Shown one piece after another: positions 6,014 to 17,069 of a stretch of 64,000 bases of DNA; the stretch's first letter is position 1, and each line of letters begins with the position of its first letter. The position numbers and the translations under genes were made by a program. The DNA is from Gammaproteobacteria bacterium (GTDB lineage Bacteria > Pseudomonadota > Gammaproteobacteria > JAABTG01). The stretch covers positions 166,793 through 230,792 of the forward strand of contig JAGNLM010000003.1 in NCBI GenBank assembly GCA_017999615.1, in the 5' to 3' direction. Below the pieces are notes generated by a model. It saw only the letters and a program-made list of their open reading frames with translations, did no database searches and was not told the DNA's origin.

Positions 6014-6867
6014 CGCAGGGCCAGCACCTCCGGGAAGAAGGCTTCTCACTCATCGAGATGGCCGTCGTCGTGGTGATCATGAGCCTCCTCCTCGGGGGGC
6101 TCCTGGGACCGCTTGCGGCCCAGCAGGACGCCCAGAAGACTGCGGAGACCCGGCGTCTGCTCGAGGAGGTGCGGGAGGGCCTGCTCGGGTTCGCGGCGGT
6201 GCAAGGACGTCTGCCGTGCCCGGACCGCCTGGCGGACGGCGACGGTCTGGAGGACCCGCGGGAGGACGGCGCCGACCCGCCCGAGGACGGTTGCGGGGGA
6301 GGGGAGTACGGGGGGTGGGTGCCCTGGGTGACCCTCGGCGTCAGCCCGCGCGACGCCTGGGGCCGGCGGCTGCGCTACCGGGTGACGCGCGAGCTCACCC
6401 GCCGCGTGGGCGACCCGTCGGCGGCCGCCTGTGTGGCGGCCCCCCCTGGGGGAGCCGGCTCCGCTACCGCCTCCGCTTCCTCTTCTGTTGCGGCCTCTCA
6501 CAACCCCTGTACGCTGGAGCTGGGCGACCCCGGTGACATCACGGTCCAGGGGCGGGACCTCGCGACCCGCGCCGAGCGCCTGGTGGCCCGGGAGCTGGCC
6601 GCCGTGGTCCTGTCGCTGGGACCCAATGGCCTCGGAGGGGTCGACGTTGCCGGCGCGCCTCTGCCCCCGCCCGCCGCAGGCGCGGAGGACGAGCTCCGCA
6701 ACCTGGACCTCGACGCCACCTTCGTCGCCCGGGACCGCTCACCCACCGCCTCGGGATGCCGGGACAGCACTGCCGCGGCACCGCCCTGCGAGTTCGACGA
6801 CCTGCTGCTCTGGGTGTCGCCCCACATCCTCTACAACCGCCTGGTGAGCGCCGGGCGGTTGCCTTGA
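6010..6867 (+). CDS. Large pilin-like protein (prepilin N-terminal motif), LPCPD-family paralogue P3
   Basis: GTG 6010 overlaps the P2 stop. VTQGQHLREEG|FSLIEMAVVVVIMSLLLGG. Also RLPCPDRLADGDG, AVVLSLGPNGLGG, RNLDLDATFVARD and CEFDDLLLW. Confidence 0.8.
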
Positions 6868-6927: not shown

Positions 6928-7230
6928 ATGCGAGTGATTGCCGTGTCTGCCCTTCGGGCCTTCTGGGAGCGTTATCCCGATGCCGAGCAGCCGCTGAGGG
7001 CTTGGTATGAGGAAGCCACGATTGCGACCTGGACCCAGCCCGCGGACATCAAGGCGCAGTACCGCAGCGCCGGCGTGCTGAAGAACCGTCGCGTGGTCTT
7101 CAACATCAAAGGCAATCACTACCGGCTGGTTGTGGCTGTTGCGTACAAATTGCAGATCGTCTACGTGAAGTTTATCGGCACTCACAAGGAGTACGACGCA
7201 GTGGACGCAGAAACCGTTGAAATGGCCTGA
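6928..7230 (+). CDS. higB: Type II toxin HigB (RelE-superfamily mRNA interferase)
   Basis: MRVIAVSALRAFWERYPDAEQPL...FNIKGNHYRLVVAVAYKLQIVYVKFIGTHKEYD matches the E. coli K-12 HigB-type pattern (N-terminal xxKALxxFxxKYP, C-terminal THKEYD). It sits upstream of an HTH antitoxin. Confidence 0.85.
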   Translation: MRVIAVSALRAFWERYPDAEQPLRAWYEEATIATWTQPADIKAQYRSAGVLKNRRVVFNIKGNHYRLVVAVAYKLQIVYVKFIGTHKEYDAVDAETVEMA

Positions 7231-7248
7231 CCGGCCACGGAGGAAAAC

Positions 7249-7620
7249 ATGGACATTCGCCCTATCCACACCGAGGCAGACTACAAGGCCACTCTCAAAG
7301 AGATTTCGGCGTTAATGGATTCCGACCCTGATCTGGGTACGCCGGAGGGTGATCGTCTGGACATCCTGGCCACGCTGGTGCAGGCCTACGAGGCCAAGCA
7401 TGCCCCTGTGACTGCGCCTGACCCGGTGGAAGCCATCAAATTCCGGATGGACCAAAGCGGTCTGTCCATCAAGGATCTTGAGCCTATCATTGGCAAAAGC
7501 AACCGCGTCTACGAAGTCCTGAACCGCAAGCGTCCGCTGACGCTGGCTATGATCCGCAGACTGCATCAGAGCCTGGGCATCCCGGCCGATGTGCTGATTG
7601 CGGAGACTGTTACCGGGTAA
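7249..7620 (+). CDS. higA: Type II antitoxin HigA (HTH, XRE-like C-terminal domain)
   Basis: Has the architecture of E. coli HigA: an N-terminal helical part, then IKFRMDQSGLSIKDLEPIIGKSNRVYEVLNRKRPLTLAMIRRLHQSLGIPADVL. Starts 19 nt after higB. Confidence 0.85.
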   Translation: MDIRPIHTEADYKATLKEISALMDSDPDLGTPEGDRLDILATLVQAYEAKHAPVTAPDPVEAIKFRMDQSGLSIKDLEPIIGKSNRVYEVLNRKRPLTLAMIRRLHQSLGIPADVLIAETVTG

Positions 7621-7632
7621 TCAGCCTGTCGC

Positions 7633-9312
7633 TCACCCCCCGCTCAGCTCGAAACACACCGCGCCCGGCTCGTTGCGGCTGAGCGTGAGGCGATAGCCGA
7701 GGCCCTCGGCCTGGCGGGCGGCCTGGAAGAGGCCGATGCCGAGGCCGGTCTTCGAGTCGACCGGCTCCCGGAAGAGCGAAGCGGCGATGGCCGGGGGCAC
7801 GGGCGTGCCGGTGTCGCACACGGTGAGGCGCAGCTTCTCGCCGTCGTCCACGAGTGTCACCTGCACCCCGATGCGGGGCTGGGCCTGGCGCTTGACCCGG
7901 GCGTTCTCGATCAGGTTCTCGGTGACGCTGTCGAGGAAGTCGACCGACAGGTCCCGGTCGACCGCGACGTTCCCCGTGAAGCCAATACCGTCGGCGGCGT
8001 GCCGGTCGGCCAGCTCGCGCCACCAGGCCCGCAGGCTGCCGAGCTCGACCCCGCTCGAGGTGTCCCCCGGGGACTTGAGCTTGTCGAGGGCCAGCTGCAG
8101 GCGATGGGTCAGGTGCGGCAACTGCCGGCGCACCAGGGCGTGCGCCTCCTCGGCGCGCCGCGGGTCGGTCTCCTGGAGCACCGTGCCCATCGTGTAGAGC
8201 GACTGCAGGAGGTTCTTGATGTCGTGGGTGACGCGGGCGCCGGTCTCGTGGATCGCCTGCAGGTGGGCCTGGCGGGCGAGCGTGCGCTGGGCGCGCTTGG
8301 CGGCGTAGAAGAAACCGATGACCTGGCTGAGGAGCTTCGCGTGCAGGAGGAGTGCGGTGCCCGGGGAGCGCCGGGTGTAGAGCGTCACGCTCAGCTCCTC
8401 GCCCGGGATGGGGTTGGCGTAGCGCGTCTCGCGCCCCGCACGGCCCTCCCCGGCCGGGCTCGTCCACGCGCAGCCCTCGACCCAGGGGAGGTTCGCGAGC
8501 TGGCTCATCGCCGCCTCGAGGAAGGGCTCGGGCTCCGTGTGCTGGCGGGCGGCGCGCGCGAGGCCGGCGAGCCACTGCTCGAAGGGCGACCCCACGTTCA
8601 GCAGGTAGCGGGTCCAGAGCTGCCCGAGGCCGCTGAACCCCGGACCCGGGGTCAAAAGCCAGCTCATGGCGAAGAGGAAGGCAGCGATGCCGACGAGGGT
8701 CTGCAGCACCGCGACGGGGTACGACTCGCCCGTCCGGTACATGACCAGGAGCGCGCCGAGGGCGAGCACCGCGGTCAACGTGGCGGCGGTCAGGGCGTGG
8801 AAGAGGTCGACCGGCTGCTCGGCGGGGCGCTTCGGGACCGGGATCATCAGGAGCAGCACGGGCGTGAGCAGGAGCCCCACGTAGAACAGGCGCTCCACGT
8901 CCCCGGGCAGGGGCACCGAGAAGGCCTGGCTCGTCGTGCCGATGACGAGCTCGCCCACCAGCACGAAGAGCGTCACGCCGTAGGCGAGCCGCTCGCGCCG
9001 GTCGACGAAGACCCGCCCGCCGATGAGCCCGATCAGCACCAGGAGCCACAGGAAGACGAGCCAGCCGCTCATCCAGGCGACGAACGCGAAGGCGAAGACG
9101 ATGAAGGCTGCCGCGGTCTTCGGGTCGAGCCGCTCGTCGCTCCTCCAGATCGGCTGCCAGAGCAGGAACAGCCCCAGGTGCGCCAGCATCAGGGAGCGAG
9201 AGACCGCGCTGCCGAAGCCGCCCCAGATGGCCCCGTGCAGCGGCGGCAGCATGGCGGCGAGGAGCCAGTGCTCGTCGAGCCGTGCGAGTCGTACGAAGGT
9301 CATTTCGATCAA
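7633..9312 (-). CDS. Sensor histidine kinase with polytopic membrane N-terminal domain (orphan; no response regulator adjacent)
   Basis: About 240 aa of repeated hydrophobic segments. H-box ARVTHDIKNLLQSL, N-box ENLIENARVK, G-box TGLGIGLFQAARQAEGLG. Confidence 0.85.
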   Translation of the reverse strand: MIEMTFVRLARLDEHWLLAAMLPPLHGAIWGGFGSAVSRSLMLAHLGLFLLWQPIWRSDERLDPKTAAAFIVFAFAFVAWMSGWLVFLWLLVLIGLIGGRVFVDRRERLAYGVTLFVLVGELVIGTTSQAFSVPLPGDVERLFYVGLLLTPVLLLMIPVPKRPAEQPVDLFHALTAATLTAVLALGALLVMYRTGESYPVAVLQTLVGIAAFLFAMSWLLTPGPGFSGLGQLWTRYLLNVGSPFEQWLAGLARAARQHTEPEPFLEAAMSQLANLPWVEGCAWTSPAGEGRAGRETRYANPIPGEELSVTLYTRRSPGTALLLHAKLLSQVIGFFYAAKRAQRTLARQAHLQAIHETGARVTHDIKNLLQSLYTMGTVLQETDPRRAEEAHALVRRQLPHLTHRLQLALDKLKSPGDTSSGVELGSLRAWWRELADRHAADGIGFTGNVAVDRDLSVDFLDSVTENLIENARVKRQAQPRIGVQVTLVDDGEKLRLTVCDTGTPVPPAIAASLFREPVDSKTGLGIGLFQAARQAEGLGYRLTLSRNEPGAVCFELSGG

Positions 9313-10984: not shown

Positions 10985-12271
10985 TCACACCGCCGGTCGC
11001 GTCGGGACCGAGGCGAACCCGTCCGGGGCGTCCGGGTCGAGCTCCCCTGACCACCCGGTCGGCCGCGGGCCCTGGGTGAAGACCCGCAGGTTGTTCAGGT
11101 ACAGCCCGTAGAGCCGGTCCTCGGGGTGCTCGGCCCAGAGCCGCCCGAACCGCGTCACCGCCTCGTCCCAGCGCCGCGCGTAGAAGCTCGCGAGCGCCCG
11201 CTCGTGGTCGGCGAGCCAGCGGGTGACCTCGGGGGTCAGGGATTCCTGCTCCCCGACCGGCTGGTACAGGCGAAAGCCGTCCGTTTTGCCGCGCACCCGC
11301 AGGGTCCCCACCTCGCGATAGACGAGGTCGGGCGCACCGGCGCGGGTCGACTCGGTCACCAGGACGTCGGCGTGCGTCTCCCGGGTCAGGGCCTGCACCC
11401 GGGCGGCGACGTTCACCGGGTCGCCGACCACGGTGTAGGCGACGCGGTAGCGCGAGCCCATGTTGCCGACGCTCATGGTGCCGGAGTTGATCCCGATCCC
11501 CATCTCCACCGCGGGCGCGCCGCGGCGCGTGAGGTCCGCCCGCAGGCAGGCGAGCGCCTGCTGCATCTCCACCGCCGCCAGCACGGCGTGCTGCGCGTGG
11601 CTCGGGTCGCGCAGGGGCGCGCCCCAGAAGGCCATCAGCGCGTCGCCGATGTACTTGTCGATGGTCCCGCCGTGGCGGTGCACGACCTCGGTGAGCGGCG
11701 TGAAGACGTCGTTCAGGAGCTGGACCAGCTGGCGCGGCTCGAGCCGCTCGGCGATGGCGGTGAAGTCGCGGATGTCCGCGAAGAGCACCGTCATCTCCCG
11801 GGCCTCGCCGTCCATGGAGAAGCCCTCCGGGTCTTCGGCCAGGGCCTGCGCCACCTGGGCCGGCACGTACTGGCCGAAGCGGGCGGCGAGCTGCCGGCGG
11901 TCGCGGGTCTCGAAGACGTAGCTCGCCAGCACCGTCAGGGCGAAGATCACCAGGGCCGCGAGCAGCGCGTGCTCCATGGGCACCAGGGCCCCGGACTGGG
12001 GGCGCGTGAAGCCGAGGTACACGGCCGGTGCCACGGCGGCGAGGGTGAGGAGGGAGGCCTGCAGGGGCCGGAGTGCGGGCAGGCCCAGGGCGAGGATGAG
12101 CCCGCTGACCGCGAGGCTCACGAGCTCCGGGCTCCCGAGCGCCTCGGCGAGGGGGACCTGGTAGGCTGCGCGGGCGAGGAAGAGCGTGAGCGCCAGCAGC
12201 CCTGCGACCGCCTGCAGGGCGTAGCGGGTGCCGTCGATCTTGCGGCCGGTGCTGCGGCGCTGGCTGGCCAT
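10985..12271 (-). CDS. Membrane-bound class III adenylate/guanylate cyclase
   Basis: About 4 N-terminal TM segments. Catalytic core MTVLFADIRDFT, IDKYIGDALMAFWGAP, YTVVGDPVNVAARVQ. About 90-aa C-terminal extension. Confidence 0.85.
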   Translation of the reverse strand: MASQRRSTGRKIDGTRYALQAVAGLLALTLFLARAAYQVPLAEALGSPELVSLAVSGLILALGLPALRPLQASLLTLAAVAPAVYLGFTRPQSGALVPMEHALLAALVIFALTVLASYVFETRDRRQLAARFGQYVPAQVAQALAEDPEGFSMDGEAREMTVLFADIRDFTAIAERLEPRQLVQLLNDVFTPLTEVVHRHGGTIDKYIGDALMAFWGAPLRDPSHAQHAVLAAVEMQQALACLRADLTRRGAPAVEMGIGINSGTMSVGNMGSRYRVAYTVVGDPVNVAARVQALTRETHADVLVTESTRAGAPDLVYREVGTLRVRGKTDGFRLYQPVGEQESLTPEVTRWLADHERALASFYARRWDEAVTRFGRLWAEHPEDRLYGLYLNNLRVFTQGPRPTGWSGELDPDAPDGFASVPTRPAV

Positions 12272-12387
12272 GGGGTCAGTTCACAGGGCTCTGCCCGGGG
12301 AGTCTAGCAGCAAGACCCGGGCCCGCCCCTTTCCACGACCCACGAACTACGACCCAGAACCCACGATCCAGAACCCACGGCGCGTGA

Positions 12388-12403
12388 TGGCACGGATATC
12401 GCA
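12388..12403 (+). promoter_or_regulatory. Sigma-54 (RpoN) -24/-12 promoter candidate for the pilin gene
   Basis: TGGCACggataTCGCA versus consensus TGGCAC-N5-TTGCW (GG-N10-GC intact), 68 nt upstream of ATG 12471. Three GTGGGT repeats (bottom strand, about 12330-12385) lie upstream as possible enhancer-binding-protein sites. Confidence 0.55.
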
Positions 12404-12470
12404 TCTTGAATCGCCACCGATTCACCGAAAACCGGTCGGTACGGACAACAACCCGGCGGGAGGAAACGCC

Positions 12471-13211
12471 ATGACGCGCAGACAGCACGGCTTCACCCTG
12501 GTCGAGATCGCCATCGTCCTGGTGATCATCGGCCTGCTCCTCGGCGGCATCCTGAAGGGCCAGGAGCTCATCAACTCCGCCCGCGTGCGGAACATCGCCG
12601 ACACCAACTCGGGGATCCAGGCGGCCTACTTCGGGTTCATCGACCGGTATCGGGCGGTGCCGGGGGATATGACTCAAGCTGCGGCTGAAGCGGCGATCGG
12701 ACAGGATATGAACTCGGGGGGTAACAACAACGGCCGTTTAGACGCGGTGGGCGGAAGTGACTTGGTCGAGGCCGCTGCGCTCTGGGAGCACCTGTGGAAG
12801 GCTGGCTTCATTCAGGGCAGCTACGATGGTACGGCGACCGCCCTTACGGACTATCCGGGGGTGGCACCGAAGAATCCGTTCAACGGATCTATTATTTTGT
12901 ACCGGACGTCAGATTATCGAGACAACAAGCCCGCCACGCCATCCGTTCGGTTGAACTTGATGTTGGGCCAGAACATCCCTGCGAGCATCGCGCGCGAGCT
13001 CGATGTGAAGGTCGACGACGCACGGCCGCTGACCGGGGTCCTGAGGCTCGCCCCAAAGACTGCTGCGACTTTCACGACTCTCGCTTCGGCTGACGACGAC
13101 TGCATCGATTTCACGGCAGGTGCAAACCCAGGTGATCCGCCAAGTGCTTACGGGAATGAGTACGATATCAAGAAGGACCATCAGGACTGCCCAGTGGTGT
13201 TCTTGTACTAG
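12471..13211 (+). CDS. Type IV pilin (long, 246 aa) with C-terminal disulfide loop
   Basis: GGGAGG Shine-Dalgarno. MTRRQHG|FTLVEIAIVLVIIGLLLGG has a 7-aa leader and Glu5. Two Cys near the C-terminus (DDDC...HQDC) resemble the D-region loop of type IVa pilins. The 3' half is visibly A/T-richer than the surrounding DNA. Confidence 0.85.
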   Translation: MTRRQHGFTLVEIAIVLVIIGLLLGGILKGQELINSARVRNIADTNSGIQAAYFGFIDRYRAVPGDMTQAAAEAAIGQDMNSGGNNNGRLDAVGGSDLVEAAALWEHLWKAGFIQGSYDGTATALTDYPGVAPKNPFNGSIILYRTSDYRDNKPATPSVRLNLMLGQNIPASIARELDVKVDDARPLTGVLRLAPKTAATFTTLASADDDCIDFTAGANPGDPPSAYGNEYDIKKDHQDCPVVFLY

Positions 13212-13226
13212 CGTGGGAACAAACGC

Positions 13227-13260
13227 AAAAAAGGGGTCGAACTGAATATTCGACCCCTTC
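13227..13260 (+). terminator. Hairpin formed by a GGGGTCGAA repeat element; probable terminator of the pilin gene
   Basis: AAGGGGTCGAA-ctgaata-TTCGACCCCTT followed by CTCCTC, 16 nt after the pilin stop. Same repeat family as 14845-14858 and 16956-17069. Confidence 0.55.
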
Positions 13261-13349
13261 TCCTCCCGGTAATCCGGACAAGTAGCGCCGGACGCTCGCC
13301 CCGATTTCGCCCATGGCAGTCGGTCCATGACCGACGAGGTCCAAGACCT

Positions 13350-13428
13350 CATCCTCGAACCGCTCCGCGCTCTTCAAAACCGGGTCGGAAGCCTGCGGCA
13401 TCGCGATGCGCAGCGAGCTCAGCGACGT
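13350..13428 (+). repeat. 79-nt direct repeat, copy A
   Basis: CATCCTCGAACCGCTC...CTGCGGCATCGCGATGCGCAGCGAGCTCAGCGACGT. Matches 14864-14942 with about 6 mismatches. Contains the 12-nt palindrome GCATCGCGATGC. Confidence 0.9.
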
Positions 13429-13658
13429 CAGGAATCGGATCGGACGTCTCGAGTCAGCCATGATCGAAGTCCGACGCGACGAGGCCGGAACGGCGGAGAT
13501 CGATCCTCCCCCGCATCCGTCAACCCCGAACCGACATCTCCCTACGGGAGGATGAGAAGGCTCGCCTCTTCGTCAGTGTCGAATGCCAGCAGATGCGCTC
13601 GATGCCGGAGTAGCATCGATAGGATCAGCGTCAGTTCCGGCATTTCCCACATGCAGCT

Positions 13659-13892
13659 TCACGCTACCGAAGAGGCCGCCAGCCGTCGCTCACGAGCGGC
13701 CGCGAAGGCCAGGGCAGCACGAATGTGCTCGGGGCGGAGGTCGGGGAAGTCTGCGAGGATCTCTGCCTCGGACATGCCACCCGCCAGGTATTCGAGGATG
13801 TCGTAGACGGTGATTCGCGTGCCACGAATGCACGGCTTACCCGAGCGAACCCCCGGCGAGATGGAAATGTAATCTTCCCAGACCACGCTCAT
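13659..13892 (-). CDS. DUF433-family putative antitoxin
   Basis: ISISPGVRSGKPCIRGTRITVYDILEYLAGGMSEAEILADFPDLRPEHIRAAL is the canonical DUF433 core. Confidence 0.8.
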   Translation of the reverse strand: MSVVWEDYISISPGVRSGKPCIRGTRITVYDILEYLAGGMSEAEILADFPDLRPEHIRAALAFAAARERRLAASSVA

Positions 13893-13910
13893 ACCCTAGT
13901 CGCGGTGCCG

Positions 13911-14087
13911 TCACGATGCAGGGCGGCCAATCTTCCCCCTGTCGGCCGCTTGCTGGCCCTGGAAACAGGTCTGATGGTAGACGCTGTCGTCGCTGTCGTT
14001 GCGGGGGAAGGCGAGGTCGCTCTCCGCCTGCTCGAGCCAGCGCGCCGCTGCAGCCTTCGGGTCGCGAAGTCTGTTGATGTCCCGCTT
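13911..14087 (-). pseudogene. HEPN-domain toxin remnant (no start codon, diverges and stops after about 58 codons)
   Basis: Immediately after the vapC stop and in the same frame: KRDINRLRDPKAAAARWLEQAESDLAFPRNDSDDSVYHQTCFQGQQAADRGK. It resembles the HEPN N-terminal half (WLxxAxxDLxxA...Y..aCFhaQQAaEKaLK). No ATG/GTG/TTG start, and the C-terminal half is absent. Confidence 0.5.
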
Positions 14088-14525
14088 TCAGGCACCGCCC
14101 GGAAACGGCACGCTCATGCCCAAGACCCGCGCGGCCTTGTTGAGCCGGATGTCGAAAGACAGGAAGGCGACCGGCATCTGCGCGATCCGCATGGTTTCGT
14201 GGGCAGCGGCCAACTGCACGCTGTCGTAGGCGCGCAGCGCAAACGCGTCGGCGTATTCGCCGGCTTGCTCCACCACCGCTTGGGTGACCTCCAGAACCAG
14301 GAAGCTCGGCCAGTCCCGGGCCAGCGCCTGTTTCGCCATCTCGATGGCGGGGCGGTCGACTGGAGTCTCGCGGGCCCGGCGCGAGAACGCGGCGTGGGCC
14401 TCGGCCCACGCAAAGCGGCAGACGGCGACCGCCTCAGCGCCTGCCGCCAGCTCTGCCACGGCGTCGCTGTCCGGCTCGACGACGTAGAGCTTGACCAGGG
14501 CCGAGGTGTCGCAGTACCCGATCAC
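14088..14525 (-). CDS. vapC: PIN-domain toxin VapC
   Basis: GTG 14525 gives VIGYCDTSALVKLYVVEPDSD...AYDSVQLAAA...FLSFDIRL. This is the PIN acidic-residue pattern. The start overlaps the upstream antitoxin stop (GTGA). Confidence 0.85.
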   Translation of the reverse strand: MIGYCDTSALVKLYVVEPDSDAVAELAAGAEAVAVCRFAWAEAHAAFSRRARETPVDRPAIEMAKQALARDWPSFLVLEVTQAVVEQAGEYADAFALRAYDSVQLAAAHETMRIAQMPVAFLSFDIRLNKAARVLGMSVPFPGGA

Positions 14526-14785
14526 CCCCGGTCCTCGATCACGATGGTGGAAACCGCGGGGCCGCTCGCTGCAAGCTCGATCCGGGCGCCGGCCGGTTTG
14601 CCGCCGCCCCACACGGCTGCCCCGGCCGCGACCAAGCTCGGGATCCCCCTCTCCGCCGCCGCTTGTACCCCGCTAACGCGCGCGACCACCTTGCGGTAGG
14701 CCGTGACCTCAATGACCTGCCCCGCGCGAGCCTGGGCGAGGTACCGCTACAAATGAGCTTTGAACTCGCGAATTGGAACGTGCAT
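14522..14785 (-). pseudogene. Phd/YefM-like antitoxin reading frame interrupted by an in-frame TAG at codon 13
   Basis: ATG 14785 gives MHVPIREFKAHL-TAG(14749..14747)[27 protein letters not shown]...STIVIEDRG-TGA. The N-terminus fits the MxxVxIxEFKxxLSxYLxxAxxGxxVxIT pattern. There is no canonical restart (ATG/GTG/TTG) in the first ~18 codons after the TAG. Confidence 0.7.
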
Positions 14786-14844
14786 TGGTGACCCATACTG
14801 CGCTCGTGACCGCCATATTGTAGTCTCAAACGGCGGCTGACGGA

Positions 14845-14858
14845 GAAAAGGGGTCGAA
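14845..14858 (+). repeat. Half-copy of the GGGGTCGAA repeat element
   Basis: GAAAAGGGGTCGAA lies 5 nt upstream of 79-nt repeat copy B. Confidence 0.6.
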
Positions 14859-14863
14859 AACCG

Positions 14864-14942
14864 CATCCTCGAACCGCTCGGCGCTCTCCAAACCCAGGTC
14901 GCAAGCCTGCGGCATCGCGATGCGCAGCGAGCTCAGCGACGT
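14864..14942 (+). repeat. 79-nt direct repeat, copy B
   Basis: Aligns base for base with 13350-13428. Similarity stops abruptly at 14942, 6 nt from the 3' end of the HigA-like fragment. Confidence 0.9.
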
Positions 14943-14947
14943 GTCGC

Positions 14948-15187
14948 CTACCTGGCGTCTCGGGGCAGGACGTCGCGGGTGATCCGATCCCCGGCGGCGA
15001 GCTCCGCGGTCCGAAGGTCGTACGCAGCCTGCAGATTGAGCCAGGACTGGGCGTCGGTGCCGAAGTGGCGTGCAAGCCGCAGGGCGGTGTCGCCGGTGAT
15101 GCCGCGGCGCCCCCGCACGCTGTCGTTGACCCTCACATGATCAATGGGGCCAGAGATCATTGATCCGACTTCGCGGGCCCCATGCAC
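14948..15187 (-). pseudogene. HigA-family (XRE HTH) antitoxin fragment lacking its N-terminal part and lacking a HigB partner
   Basis: HVRVNDSVRGRRGITGDTALRLARHFGTDAQSWLNLQAAYDLRTAE matches the C-terminal two-thirds of HigA/VapI antidote proteins (..RINDIVRGRRGITADTALRLARYFGTS.QFWLNLQ..YDL). The frame opens only 15 nt after the stop of the upstream PIN gene, in the same frame. Confidence 0.6.
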
Positions 15188-15202
15188 GGCGGAGCCCCTC
15201 GG

Positions 15203-15643
15203 TCAGCCATGTCGCGTCCCGCTATCGACAAGCCGCAAGGCTTCCGCTGGCGGCACGATCGGAATCTCCCGGTATCGGTGCAGAGAGAGCAAGTCCTCAT
15301 CTCCGGAAACGATCATGTCACTCTGGCCGAACACAGCCAGGGCGAGCACCGCATCGTCATCGGGGTCGCGCGACACTGGCCCCGGAAGGGGAGGCGTGTC
15401 GATTATCTCGGCCAGTTCTTGAAGGCTGGTCAGTACCTGCTGCGGGGAGATCCCCGATCGCGAGAGGATGAGGTCAAACTTCGGTCGCTGAAGTACATCA
15501 ATGAGCTCGGTCAAGAGCGCCGAGCTGCACAAAAGAGTCAGCTGTCCATCGCGCACGCGCTCCAGAATCGTGTGGGGTGGCCCGCGCCATAACAAACCGG
15601 ACAGCAAGACATTGGTGTCAAGGACGATCCGCACGGCGATCAC
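15203..15643 (-). CDS. PIN-domain toxin (TIGR00305-like putative toxin family)
   Basis: RIVLDTNVLLSGLLWRGPP...LLTELIDVLQRPKF...DPDDDAVLALAVFGQSDMIVSGDEDLL. Confidence 0.8.
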   Translation of the reverse strand: MIAVRIVLDTNVLLSGLLWRGPPHTILERVRDGQLTLLCSSALLTELIDVLQRPKFDLILSRSGISPQQVLTSLQELAEIIDTPPLPGPVSRDPDDDAVLALAVFGQSDMIVSGDEDLLSLHRYREIPIVPPAEALRLVDSGTRHG

Positions 15644-15905
15644 GCTCCCGGCGCGACGCCTTGACCTCGGCGTTGATCTCCCCGATGGACATCGGTGCGA
15701 TCCCCGCTGCCGCCACCCGCTCTGCTATCAATAGCAAGGAGTCCGCTGCCCGCCTGCCGCGGATCGCCTCATTGAGTAGCCGCTCGAGCGCTTCGGGTGT
15801 GAGCAGCCCAGCCTTGCGCGCAGCGTCTACGACCGCGTCGGGTAACTCCATCTGGATCTTCGTCACAACGGTGTCTCCGGTAAGGTAACGCGGTGAATCG
15901 GCCAT
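15618..15905 (-). CDS. Putative cognate antitoxin of the 15203 PIN toxin
   Basis: Small ORF directly upstream of the PIN gene and overlapping it. MELPDAVVDAARKAGLLTPEALERLLNEAIR is ribbon/helix antitoxin-like. The true start may be the internal ATG (codon 19). Confidence 0.5.
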   Translation of the reverse strand: MADSPRYLTGDTVVTKIQMELPDAVVDAARKAGLLTPEALERLLNEAIRGRRAADSLLLIAERVAAAGIAPMSIGEINAEVKASRRERDRRADRP

Positions 15906-16163
15906 GTATCGATGGTGTCCGATCTCATCGAGTAACCCCCCATGGTGACGACAATGTCATCTCCTTAACCTGCGGTCATACCCTAGTCGGAGCGCCGGCT
16001 CGGCGCAAGAACGGCGTGCCCTTGACGCGGCGGTGAGCCGGTGGCTCAGTCTCGCTCCGGTGGCCGCCGGGGGCTGAGCGAACCCCCGTTCTCCAGGGCG
16101 CGCGCGTGTGCCTTCCGCGCGGACGGGTGAACCGGTCTCTCGCTCGGTATAGGATTTGCCCTC

Positions 16164-16991
16164 ATGGCCACTCCTACCTCTACCTCTACCCCCACGGCCA
16201 CGGCAAGCCGCACCCCCGTCCGGGCTTCCGCGCCCGTTCCCGCCCCTGCCCCCGTTCCTGCCCTCGCCATCGAGTCGGTGGCCAAGTCCTTCGGACGGCA
16301 GCCGGTGCTGGAGCGCGTGACGCTCACGGTGAGCGCGGGGGAGTTCGTGGGGCTCGTGGGCCTGAACGGGGCGGGCAAGACGACCCTCATCAAGGGGCTC
16401 CTCGACTTCGCGGCGCTGGACGCGGGGACCATCTCGATCTTCGGCGTCGACCACCGGCGCACGCGGGCCCGCGAGCGCCTCGCGTTCCTGCCCGAGCGCT
16501 TCAACCCCCCCTACTTCCTCACCGGTCGGGACTTCCTCGCCCACATGGCGAAGCTCCACGGGCGGGGCCACGAGGAGGAAGAGGTGCTCGAGACCGTCGA
16601 GGGGCTCGACCTCGACCCCGCCGCGCTTGCGAGGCCGGTGCGCTCCTACTCCAAGGGCATGGCCCAGAAGCTCGGTCTCGCGGCGACGCTGCTGAGCGGG
16701 CGTGACCTCTACGTGCTGGACGAGCCCATGAGCGGTCTCGACCCGCGGGCCCGGGCGCTCTTCAAGCGCCGGCTGCTCGGCCTGCGCGAGCAGGGGCGGA
16801 CCGTCTTCTTCAGCACCCATCTGCTCACCGACGTGGACGACCTCTGCGACCGCCTCGCGGTGCTGCACGAGGGCCGCGTGCGGTTCCTCGGCACGCCCCA
16901 GGAGTGCTGCCGGCGCTACGAGGCCTTTTCCCTGGAGCAGGCCTTCCTGCAGTGCATCGAAAAGGGGTCCATCGAAAAGGGGTCGAACTGA
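16164..16991 (+). CDS. ABC transporter ATP-binding protein (orphan; no permease adjacent)
   Basis: Walker A GLNGAGKTT, signature YSKGMAQKL, Walker B LYVLDEPMSGLD, H-loop STHLL. Low-complexity N-terminal extension TPTSTSTPTATASRTPVRASAPVPAPAPVPA. The last 11 codons and the stop are encoded by repeat-element DNA. Confidence 0.9.
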   Translation: MATPTSTSTPTATASRTPVRASAPVPAPAPVPALAIESVAKSFGRQPVLERVTLTVSAGEFVGLVGLNGAGKTTLIKGLLDFAALDAGTISIFGVDHRRTRARERLAFLPERFNPPYFLTGRDFLAHMAKLHGRGHEEEEVLETVEGLDLDPAALARPVRSYSKGMAQKLGLAATLLSGRDLYVLDEPMSGLDPRARALFKRRLLGLREQGRTVFFSTHLLTDVDDLCDRLAVLHEGRVRFLGTPQECCRRYEAFSLEQAFLQCIEKGSIEKGSN

Positions 16992-17069
16992 ATGTTCAGG
17001 GCGAAAATTCAGTTCGACCCCTTTTCCCGCCCCTTTTCCCGCCCCGGATATTCAGTTCGACCCCTTTTC
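16956..17069. repeat. Composite cluster of the GGGGTCGAA(CTGAAT) palindromic repeat family (REP/BIME-like)
   Basis: Tandem ATCGAAAAGGGGTCC/ATCGAAAAGGGGTCG (16956-16985). Forward arm GAAAAGGGGTCGAACTGAAT (16974-16993). Two exact reverse-complement arms ATTCAGTTCGACCCCTTTTC (17007-17026, 17050-17069). Tandem CCCCTTTTCCCG x2 (17018-17041). Confidence 0.85.

Follow-up and report, generated by a model that had tools for sequence, protein, structure and literature searches.

Between a gene for a pilin-like protein (12228–13211, plus strand, with a prepilin N-methylation motif) and a gene for an ABC ATPase (16164–16991, plus strand, the far flank), the 64,000-nt stretch of contig JAGNLM010000003.1 analyzed here (the window; Gammaproteobacteria bacterium, assembly GCA_017999615.1) carries a 2.9-kb toxin–antitoxin (TA) island (~13212–16056), in which two apparently intact TA pairs, AT95-PIN_3 and Phd-VapC, are packed against the remains of at least six other modules. 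We regard it as highly likely that this is a horizontally acquired TA island, residing in a variable hotspot between the pilin-like and ABC genes and eroded by deletions and point mutations. The host would be an Ectothiorhodospiraceae-like gammaproteobacterium, and the ancestral array would have been made of complete type II modules, namely MazEF, HigBA, AT95-PIN_3, Phd-VapC, MNT-HEPN and DUF433-DUF5615. In the window AT95-PIN_3 alone is complete, Phd-VapC is complete save for an amber codon, and the other modules are reduced to partial genes, with DUF433 left as an intact orphan.

A toxin–antitoxin island in a variable site

Relatives and variants of the locus were found as metagenome contigs (labelled L0xx or L1xx), including a same-species set of about 20 from sewage metagenomes. 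The same-species contigs were retrieved by exact-protein look-ups with DUF433 and AT95, and a corresponding look-up with the PIN_3 toxin returned no record. The arrangement seen in the window recurs at 98.6–99.7% identity in seven contigs of other samples (L001–L004, L006, L007 and L009, of which L004 and L009 span just part of the compared stretch), and is therefore not an assembly artefact. Base composition sets the region apart, with a GC fraction of 0.56–0.69 over most of 12300–16050 (maximum 0.73, near 14250–14700) vs. 0.69–0.79 in the flanks.

An insertion hotspot had been postulated in an earlier reading made from the sequence alone (hereafter the original prediction), and alignment across relatives substantiates it by identifying three empty sites. 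In L013, L014 and L156, which are related more distantly, the pilin-like gene and the ABC gene are neighbors, L156 having a 54-nt spacer between them and the same trp-crp-osmC synteny. Other TA cargo occupies the site elsewhere. In L158 this is a ParE toxin (PF05016, E = 1.2e-16) with an upstream 62-aa open reading frame (ORF) and an unrelated 431-aa ORF. The nearest catalogued genome, an uncultured Ectothiorhodospiraceae metagenome-assembled genome (L011) with an 85% identical ABC protein, has a 4.3-kb island containing intact MazEF (MazF matching PF02452 at E = 8.4e-22, with an upstream ribbon-helix-helix antitoxin), intact HigBA (HigB matching PF05015 at E = 1.2e-17, HigA of 100 aa), an AbrB-type (MazE-family) antitoxin ORF, an orphan HicB and an AT95-PIN_3 pair, further accompanied by a second HigA truncated at its C-terminus, a HigA scrap of 27 nt and a stub of HEPN. 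Because three relatives are empty at this position, and L011 and L158 hold different TA cargo there, sequence comparison supports the site between the pilin-like and ABC genes as a TA hotspot.

All elements claimed between 15905 and 13573, including coordinates, spacers and frames, were reproduced on translation of the minus strand, and profile searches placed PIN_3, VapC, DUF433 and HigA above, and HEPN and Phd below, the respective family cut-offs. The image of intact modules piled against truncated TA remnants was borne out, and the inventory of remnants has grown to include the 3′ end of mazF, the 5′ end of DUF433 and a relic of a former island edge.

The best-preserved module is AT95-PIN_3. 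The PIN_3 toxin (15203–15643, minus strand) is apparently intact, matching PF13470 over positions 1–114 of 115 (E = 4.5e-19, 69.8 bits) as well as TIGR00305 (E = 3.5e-22, 78.9 bits), has a conserved upstream partner, and is 91% identical to its L011 counterpart at the protein level. This partner, AT95 (15618–15905, minus strand, 95 aa), overlaps the PIN_3 gene and matches no Pfam or NCBIfam model, and is assigned as the cognate antitoxin since a PIN_3 homolog lies directly downstream of its homologs in 43 of 55 metagenome loci. Between the window and L011 the ratio of non-synonymous to synonymous substitution rates (dN/dS) is 0.25 for AT95 and 0.27 for PIN_3, suggestive of purifying selection on both genes and fitting a live module. 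The AT95 homologs, 40–74% identical, form an antitoxin family that is consistently paired with PIN_3 and has no curated model, and as such deserves to be flagged.

Truncation of formerly complete modules

Five truncations are deletions of 80–2450 bp, bounded by microhomologies of 2–10 nt where these were scored, for which the long allele is seen elsewhere. The clearest affects the partner of DUF433. This (COG2442) antitoxin gene is itself intact (13659–13892, minus strand; PF04255, E = 3.4e-26, 91.3 bits), and DUF433/COG2442-PIN pairs are VapBC-type TA systems (PMC3834315). In the window the module is incomplete, the DUF5615 (PIN-like) toxin being reduced to a stub of 29 codons (13573–13662, minus strand) whose ORF overlaps the DUF433 stop. 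Only L008 retains an intact 110-aa DUF5615 after DUF433 (PF18480, E = 1.6e-29, positions 1–104 of 110), and its alignment with the window exposes a 213-bp in-frame deletion, bounded by GTGAAGCTGC and GTGTGGCTGC, along with a 1-nt insertion at 13626.

On the other side of DUF433, and separated from it by 18 nt, lies a HEPN remnant (HEPN′, 13911–14087, minus strand) that follows the VapC stop codon in frame with zero spacer. It comprises roughly the N-terminal third of the gene, is cut at both ends, so that both the start codon and the C-terminal two-thirds are missing, and ends at about codon 50, where it is truncated by J1 (13880–13935, minus strand), a ~55-nt conserved junction element spanning the DUF433 start codon. 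The HEPN catalytic motif is located in the C-terminal region, beyond the part that is kept. HEPN′ aligns with PF05168 over positions 2–35 of 117 at 21.2 bits (E = 3.5e-4), just under the cut-off of 22, and a word-indexed homolog search with the 58-aa fragment returned nothing; HEPN proteins are four of its best six PDB sequence matches (1wol, 1o3u, 1ufb and 3o10, over their residues 4–46), and it is 83% identical over 70 nt to the remnant in L011. There is no MNT partner in the window, where the VapC stop abuts HEPN′. In L097, in contrast, 222 nt between VapC and HEPN′ that the window does not have encode an MNT-like N-terminus (LFGSFARG; a weak match to PF01909, E = 0.013), and reciprocally 80 nt of HEPN′ kept in the window are missing from L097. 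A complete MNT-HEPN module must therefore once have been present, and was eroded differently in different strains.

Larger deletions segregate in the same population. In L092, L094, L096, L098 and L100 a stretch of 599 bp (14010–13412) is missing, the junction joining GACCTCGC to GCATC; this loss covers the rest of HEPN′, J, DUF433, the DUF5615 stub and the 3′ part of a segment labelled sg (13327–13555, plus strand). The short form is the derived one, because in the outgroup L011 HEPN is continuous across the breakpoint (window 13955–14024). An independent deletion of 717 bp (14051–13335) is found in L093. An apparently novel 100 nt between PIN_3 and Phd in the same contig proved to be a scaffold run of N and was discarded.

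At the opposite end of the island, directly upstream of the ABC gene and beyond the coordinates of the original prediction, all that is left of MazEF is 57 nt of the mazF/pemK 3′ end (16000–16056, plus strand, …RALDAAVSRWLSLAPVAAG), 89% identical in nucleotides to the 3′ end of the intact L011 MazF. It adjoins a second copy of the junction element, J2 (15950–16009, minus strand), which carries ~10 degenerate codons of the DUF433 5′ end with a stop at codon 5. Window 15138–16009 corresponds to L011 6494–7363 and window 16000–16056 to L011 9814–9870 (the 3′ end of intact mazF), two L011 segments with 2450 bp between them, each ending in TCGG[C/T]GCAAG, the 10-nt repeat found at the J2/mazF′ junction. 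One 2450-bp deletion in an L011-like array would thus give the window junction, and would at the same time remove HicB, a HigA copy (HigA″), the AbrB-type ORF and adjoining sequence, HigBA, MazE and most of MazF.

The J core CGACTAGGGTATGA occurs twice in the window (0.15 copies expected by chance) and once in L011, and is absent from 55 other AT95 loci. The element as a whole measures ~55–90 nt and precedes two different cassettes, DUF433 and AT95, with further copies at L011 7285–7376 (between AT95 and the orphan HicB) and L097 8095–8190. Both J2 and a third copy, J3, hold the ~10 degenerate codons of the DUF433 start, and J is best read as a relic of the DUF433 5′ end and its upstream region. 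The 5′ part of J1 and J3 (GATTGGCCGCC, reading K-I-G-R-L/P) resembles the ‘RIGRLS’ region of L011 mazF, and we may speculate that J is preceded by a mazF-like ‘KIGRL’ stub. That J might be the 3′ end of hicA, or a site of recombination, was considered and abandoned, the plus-strand translation having no Pfam support.

Point mutations have acted on Phd-VapC. VapC (14088–14525, minus strand) is an apparently intact PIN toxin, matching PF01850 over positions 2–119 of 120 (E = 3.5e-10, 41 bits vs. a cut-off of 23.6), with conserved acidic residues noted by eye alone. The Phd-like antitoxin (14522–14785, minus strand), whose stop overlaps the VapC start (GTGA), is interrupted by TAG at codon 13 (14747–14749). 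Its family match is weak (PF02604, E = 1.2e-3; TIGR01552, E = 4.3e-4; 19 bits vs. a cut-off of 29.8), and Phd (at E ~1e-3) and HEPN are the weakest annotations in the island; a homologous full-length Phd-VapC pair is present in L103, at 50% and 65% identity. Codon 13 is TCG in eight of ten compared loci, TAG being a single-nucleotide polymorphism (SNP) confined to the window, L007 and L010. This TCG/TAG polymorphism led us to reject programmed recoding of the amber codon. In L004 VapC is frameshifted by a 1-nt deletion at the position equivalent to window 14474 and Phd is intact, the opposite state to the broken Phd and apparently intact VapC of the window, L007 and L010. Two structural backgrounds carry the amber allele, one of them having a 303-bp block (described below) and the other not; this could reflect recombination or chimeric assembly. 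Wherever the alignments allow direction to be determined, then, truncation reads as the deletion or point mutation of a formerly complete module, and not as the footprint of an incoming cassette.

The HigA remnant and a probable former island edge

Past the PIN_3 stop codon by 15 nt, and in the same frame, begins an ORF (15187–14948) that contains the HigA remnant (HigA′, 14948–15132, minus strand), the C-terminal ~60 codons of the gene, and extends upstream of it to a GTG at 15187. Its C-terminal 48 residues match TIGR02607 over positions 32–79 of 81 (E = 7.9e-15, 54.5 bits vs. a cut-off of 47.7); the N-terminal ~31 model positions, and with them a full helix-turn-helix (HTH), are missing. 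Homology to the 100-aa L011 HigA begins around its codon 40, at 92% nucleotide identity. No HigB is adjacent to HigA′ in the window, and a HigB next to HigA is seen only in L011. HigA′ begins inside the HTH recognition helix, and because model coverage starts there a normal fold is unlikely.

The in-frame abutments PIN_3/HigA′ and VapC/HEPN′ were also considered as read-through fusions, an idea that was dropped since in L097 the MNT remnant follows VapC in another frame; two in-frame junctions are within chance expectation (about 1 in 9). In L011 the three HigA-derived pieces comprise an intact copy, the N-terminal 66 codons and the 27-nt scrap, the latter fused to HEPN′, with positions 7630–7938, ~6455–6480 and 8583–8885 accounting for the three. 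Four independent junctions across the two species fall inside HigA genes, and repeated HigA copies may serve as recombination substrates.

HigA′ forms part of a 303-bp block (14829–15131) that comprises the HigA C-terminal part, an sg fragment and half of a repetitive extragenic palindrome (REP), is flanked by TGAG on both sides, and is missing from eight contigs (L005, L010, L092, L094, L096, L098, L099 and L100). A single microhomology deletion would be its simplest reading, with the direction less certain. The 79-nt repeat and half REP noted earlier are indeed present, and the repeat extends to 91 nt, copies A (13338–13428, within sg) and B (14852–14942) being 91% identical (93.7% over the 79 nt). 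The half REP (14846–14858) abuts copy B, the two forming a relic (14846–14942, plus strand) in which the left arm of a REP is fused, at a GGTC.AA microhomology, to the 91-nt sg fragment. A complete REP-like palindrome (13229–13262) stands just after the pilin-like gene, marking the pilin-side edge of the island, and the REP core AAAGGGGTCGAA is found at just three loci of the window (13230/13249, 14847 and 16976–17067). The combination of REP half and copy B therefore looks like a former pilin-side edge, REP followed by sg, that has become internal. One recombination between diverged island variants, adding Phd-VapC, MNT-HEPN and DUF433-DUF5615 on the pilin side, would fit this arrangement, and an origin from diverged alleles would fit the 91% likeness of copies A and B. 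The sg segment is frameshifted in the window and corresponds to an intact 59-aa ORF in L008 (3715–3894, minus strand). It may be a small gene, a regulatory RNA or a spacer; its status as a gene is doubtful, as it has no Pfam match, and mismatches between alleles (9/15/14) show no bias toward the third codon position.

Proposed erosion and alternative explanations

In the mechanism proposed here the array would have eroded lineage by lineage through illegitimate deletions (80 bp–2.5 kb) between microhomologies of 2–10 nt, often across cassette boundaries, with nonsense and frameshift mutations as a second route. Since the cassettes are arranged head to tail, a deletion across a boundary brings an intact gene right up against what is left of its neighbor. 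A selective filter may have shaped the outcome, in that losses inactivating a toxin would be tolerated and such deletions would survive. This would explain why relics are mostly antitoxin pieces or toxin stubs without catalytic parts. As for entry and shuffling, we infer ordinary recombination, homologous or illegitimate, in which other island alleles take part and which is anchored in the pilin, REP and ABC flanks, one such accretion having left the internal relic of the old edge (REP half and sg fragment). Allelic exchange anchored in these flanks is plausible. L008 and L093 have different pilin alleles, and their identity, ~99% in the island, drops to 76% where the island meets the pilin-like gene; this break suggests that pilin and island are exchanged together as alleles.

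Several observations weigh against this account. The original arrival of cassettes at the site escaped observation. Some metagenome contigs could be chimeras of strains that co-occur, which weakens inferences of linkage, although the existence of the junctions is unaffected. The direction of the 303-bp difference, deletion or insertion, is less certain, the strains without the block being the more divergent ones (~96–98% identity). HigA′ has a dN/dS of 0.12 relative to the intact L011 HigA (11 synonymous and four non-synonymous changes) and both its SNPs in the population are synonymous, from which it follows that it has not drifted neutrally for long since the species split; a recent truncation would be the simplest explanation, with gene conversion or residual function as further possibilities. 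Finally, a broken Phd beside an apparently intact VapC, as in the window, is the ‘wrong’ order under a filter that removes toxins first. It is tempting to speculate that the amber codon is tolerated owing to polar effects on VapC through translational coupling, to translation restarting at an internal GTG (14689), or to an already weak toxin.

The original prediction had envisaged serial displacement, in which each newer cassette landed in the 5′ part of the resident one and deleted its first gene, at a hotspot that was recombinase-independent or served in trans. This would be in keeping with the gain of different TA cargo at the site in three lineages, with the loss of both the 5′ part and HigB from HigA′, and with the ambiguous direction of the 303-bp block; moreover, the edge relic testifies that new material was added on the pilin side at least once. 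The remaining evidence nonetheless makes displacement unlikely. The DUF5615 stub results from an internal deletion, HEPN′ is cut at both ends with an MNT remnant surviving in L097, and the amber codon is a SNP. The 599-bp, 717-bp and 2.45-kb differences read as simple deletions whose long form is continuous in the outgroup or a sister strain, the last of them as a single event upstream of AT95. The accretion relic itself lies 3′ of HigA, whose stop codon is intact, and not in a 5′ part, and no segregating insertion allele was encountered among the ~20 variant contigs. Erosion by deletion accounts for the same geometry, the abutment of intact and truncated genes being the expected outcome of boundary-spanning deletions in a packed array, with no need for a special insertion mechanism.

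Less credible still is a functional architecture, in which DUF433, HigA′ and the Phd remnant are kept for anti-addiction, i.e., protection against plasmid and phage TA toxins, or for regulation of their neighbors. It has been proposed in print that chromosomal TA systems have an anti-addiction role (PMC7167474), the intact DUF433 does not vary among the ten compared loci, and the low dN/dS and exclusively synonymous polymorphisms of HigA′ point in the same direction, although the substitution counts are small. Against this, HigA′ starts within the recognition helix and is unlikely to fold normally, and many strains are missing the 303-bp segment bearing HigA′ or the 599-/717-bp segments bearing DUF433; of the blocks of the collection, 30 contain an index entry for the exact DUF433 protein vs. 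614 for AT95, and the DUF433-bearing form thus appears to be in the minority in the wider population. An identical architecture conserved over long evolutionary distance had been named as a sign of function rather than decay. In fact the architecture varies among strains of the species and is not shared by the sister species, favoring decay.

Similarly improbable is the notion that motifs common to unrelated cassettes act as preferred crossover points, the site between pilin and ABC then being a recombinase-free, microhomology-guided exchanger that captures and prunes TA modules. The candidate motifs would be the ~55-nt J element, the TCGG[C/T]GCAAG and GATTGGCCGCC strings common to J and mazF, and the multiple HigA copies. 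In a lesser variant of this idea HigA′ would have been co-opted as a new small protein.

The absence of integrase, transposase and attC-like sites remarked upon in the original prediction was upheld. No Pfam integrase or transposase family matched any called gene within ~8–10 kb on either side, no tRNA or tmRNA gene was detected in the 64 kb, and an Rfam scan of the region yielded no family at threshold, with only sub-threshold matches on the REP hairpins. Inverted repeats in the island are just the REPs or weak chance pairs, with none at cassette boundaries; the junction spacers of 0, 15 and 18 nt leave no room for an attC site between cassettes, and the sole long direct repeat (91 nt) is internal and not found at both island ends. 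Chromosomal integrons are rich in TA cassettes, and the small, dense cassettes of the island, mostly in one orientation, with a ~55-nt element preceding two of them, are reminiscent of such arrays, but in view of these negative results, and of J2 and J3 being better read as relics of the DUF433 5′ end and upstream region with a core absent from the other AT95 loci, a degenerate integron-like or otherwise site-specific cassette array, or a tRNA-linked integrative island, with its recombinase outside the examined region, is very improbable indeed.

Relation to known systems

That chromosomal TA systems decay through deletions and nonsense mutations, at conserved intergenic sites that are empty in relatives, is established; PMC7167474 reviews it with reference to Mine et al. 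2009 and to Ramisetty & Santhosh 2016, the examples being ccdO157 and the TA inventories of E. coli. The present locus is an ordinary instance of this well-documented process, not a new insertion mechanism. The closest parallel is ccdO157 of E. coli, located between folA and apaH (Mine et al. 2009, via PMC7167474). Going by the description there, it is likewise intergenic between core genes and empty in relatives, shows deletion and nonsense polymorphism within the species that progressively inactivates the module, and has no mobile-element signature. Unlike the single module of ccdO157, the site in the window has eight or more modules of different families in one array, decays mostly by boundary-spanning deletions that create the ‘butted’ geometry, and is documented by metagenome contigs and not isolates. 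Horizontally acquired type II TA loci as outlined in the same source (Ramisetty & Santhosh 2016; PMC7167474) share with it a conserved location, patchy occupancy and degenerating copies; here, in contrast, several unrelated TA families meet at one site, and the cargo differs among the window, L011 and L158. The components match the VapBC-type PIN/COG2442 (PMC3834315), HEPN-MNT, HigBA and MazEF families, most of them being partial in the window.

The locus stands out for how densely it is packed, eight or more modules of different families being represented, and for how many stages of decay segregate. It provides a clean natural example, within one wild population, of an intact toxin, an internally deleted toxin, the loss of a whole module, and nonsense mutation of an antitoxin in some strains vs. 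frameshift of a toxin in another, while a sister species keeps modules that persist in the window as stubs of 57–185 nt. No new biological question is opened by it. In chromosomal (super)integrons, such as those of Vibrio, small TA operons are strung densely in tandem, most of them facing the same way, and orphan and truncated genes lie among them. The island resembles them in its density, prevailing orientation, and orphan and truncated genes; unlike them it has neither intI nor attC nor spacers of cassette length, and its junctions are illegitimate, with 2–10-nt microhomology.

Flanking genes and minor features

The surroundings of the island are arranged as trpEGDC-crp-osmC-GGDEF-ABC-[island]-pilin-cyclase. 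Its REP-like palindromes (GAAAAGGGGTCGAACTGAATATTC…) at 13229–13262 and 14846–14858 (the half copy inside the island) have a counterpart at 16974–17069, where two units surround the 3′ end of the ABC gene, the first overlapping its last codons. The ABC ORF has an N-terminal extension (16164–16250, plus strand; L011 9902–10045) that is of low complexity, rich in Pro, Thr and Ala, and unalignable between the two species. Since homologs are 239–249 aa long, the true start codon of the ABC ATPase is probably further downstream. On the other flank, the C-terminal part of the pilin-like gene is hypervariable, with 76% nucleotide identity in some same-species strains and ~60% protein identity in the sister species (compared over L008 4092–4430, L093 7652–8368 and L011 4875–5657). 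Within the island itself variation is uneven, VapC having ~12 variable sites and DUF433 no SNP at all in ten compared loci. A further TA-related polymorphism lies ~6 kb from the island (window ~6928–7620; L001 16273–16965), where a 230-aa product matching HigB_toxin (PF09907) is predicted as a single gene in L001 and as two genes (123 and 100 aa) in L002 and L003.

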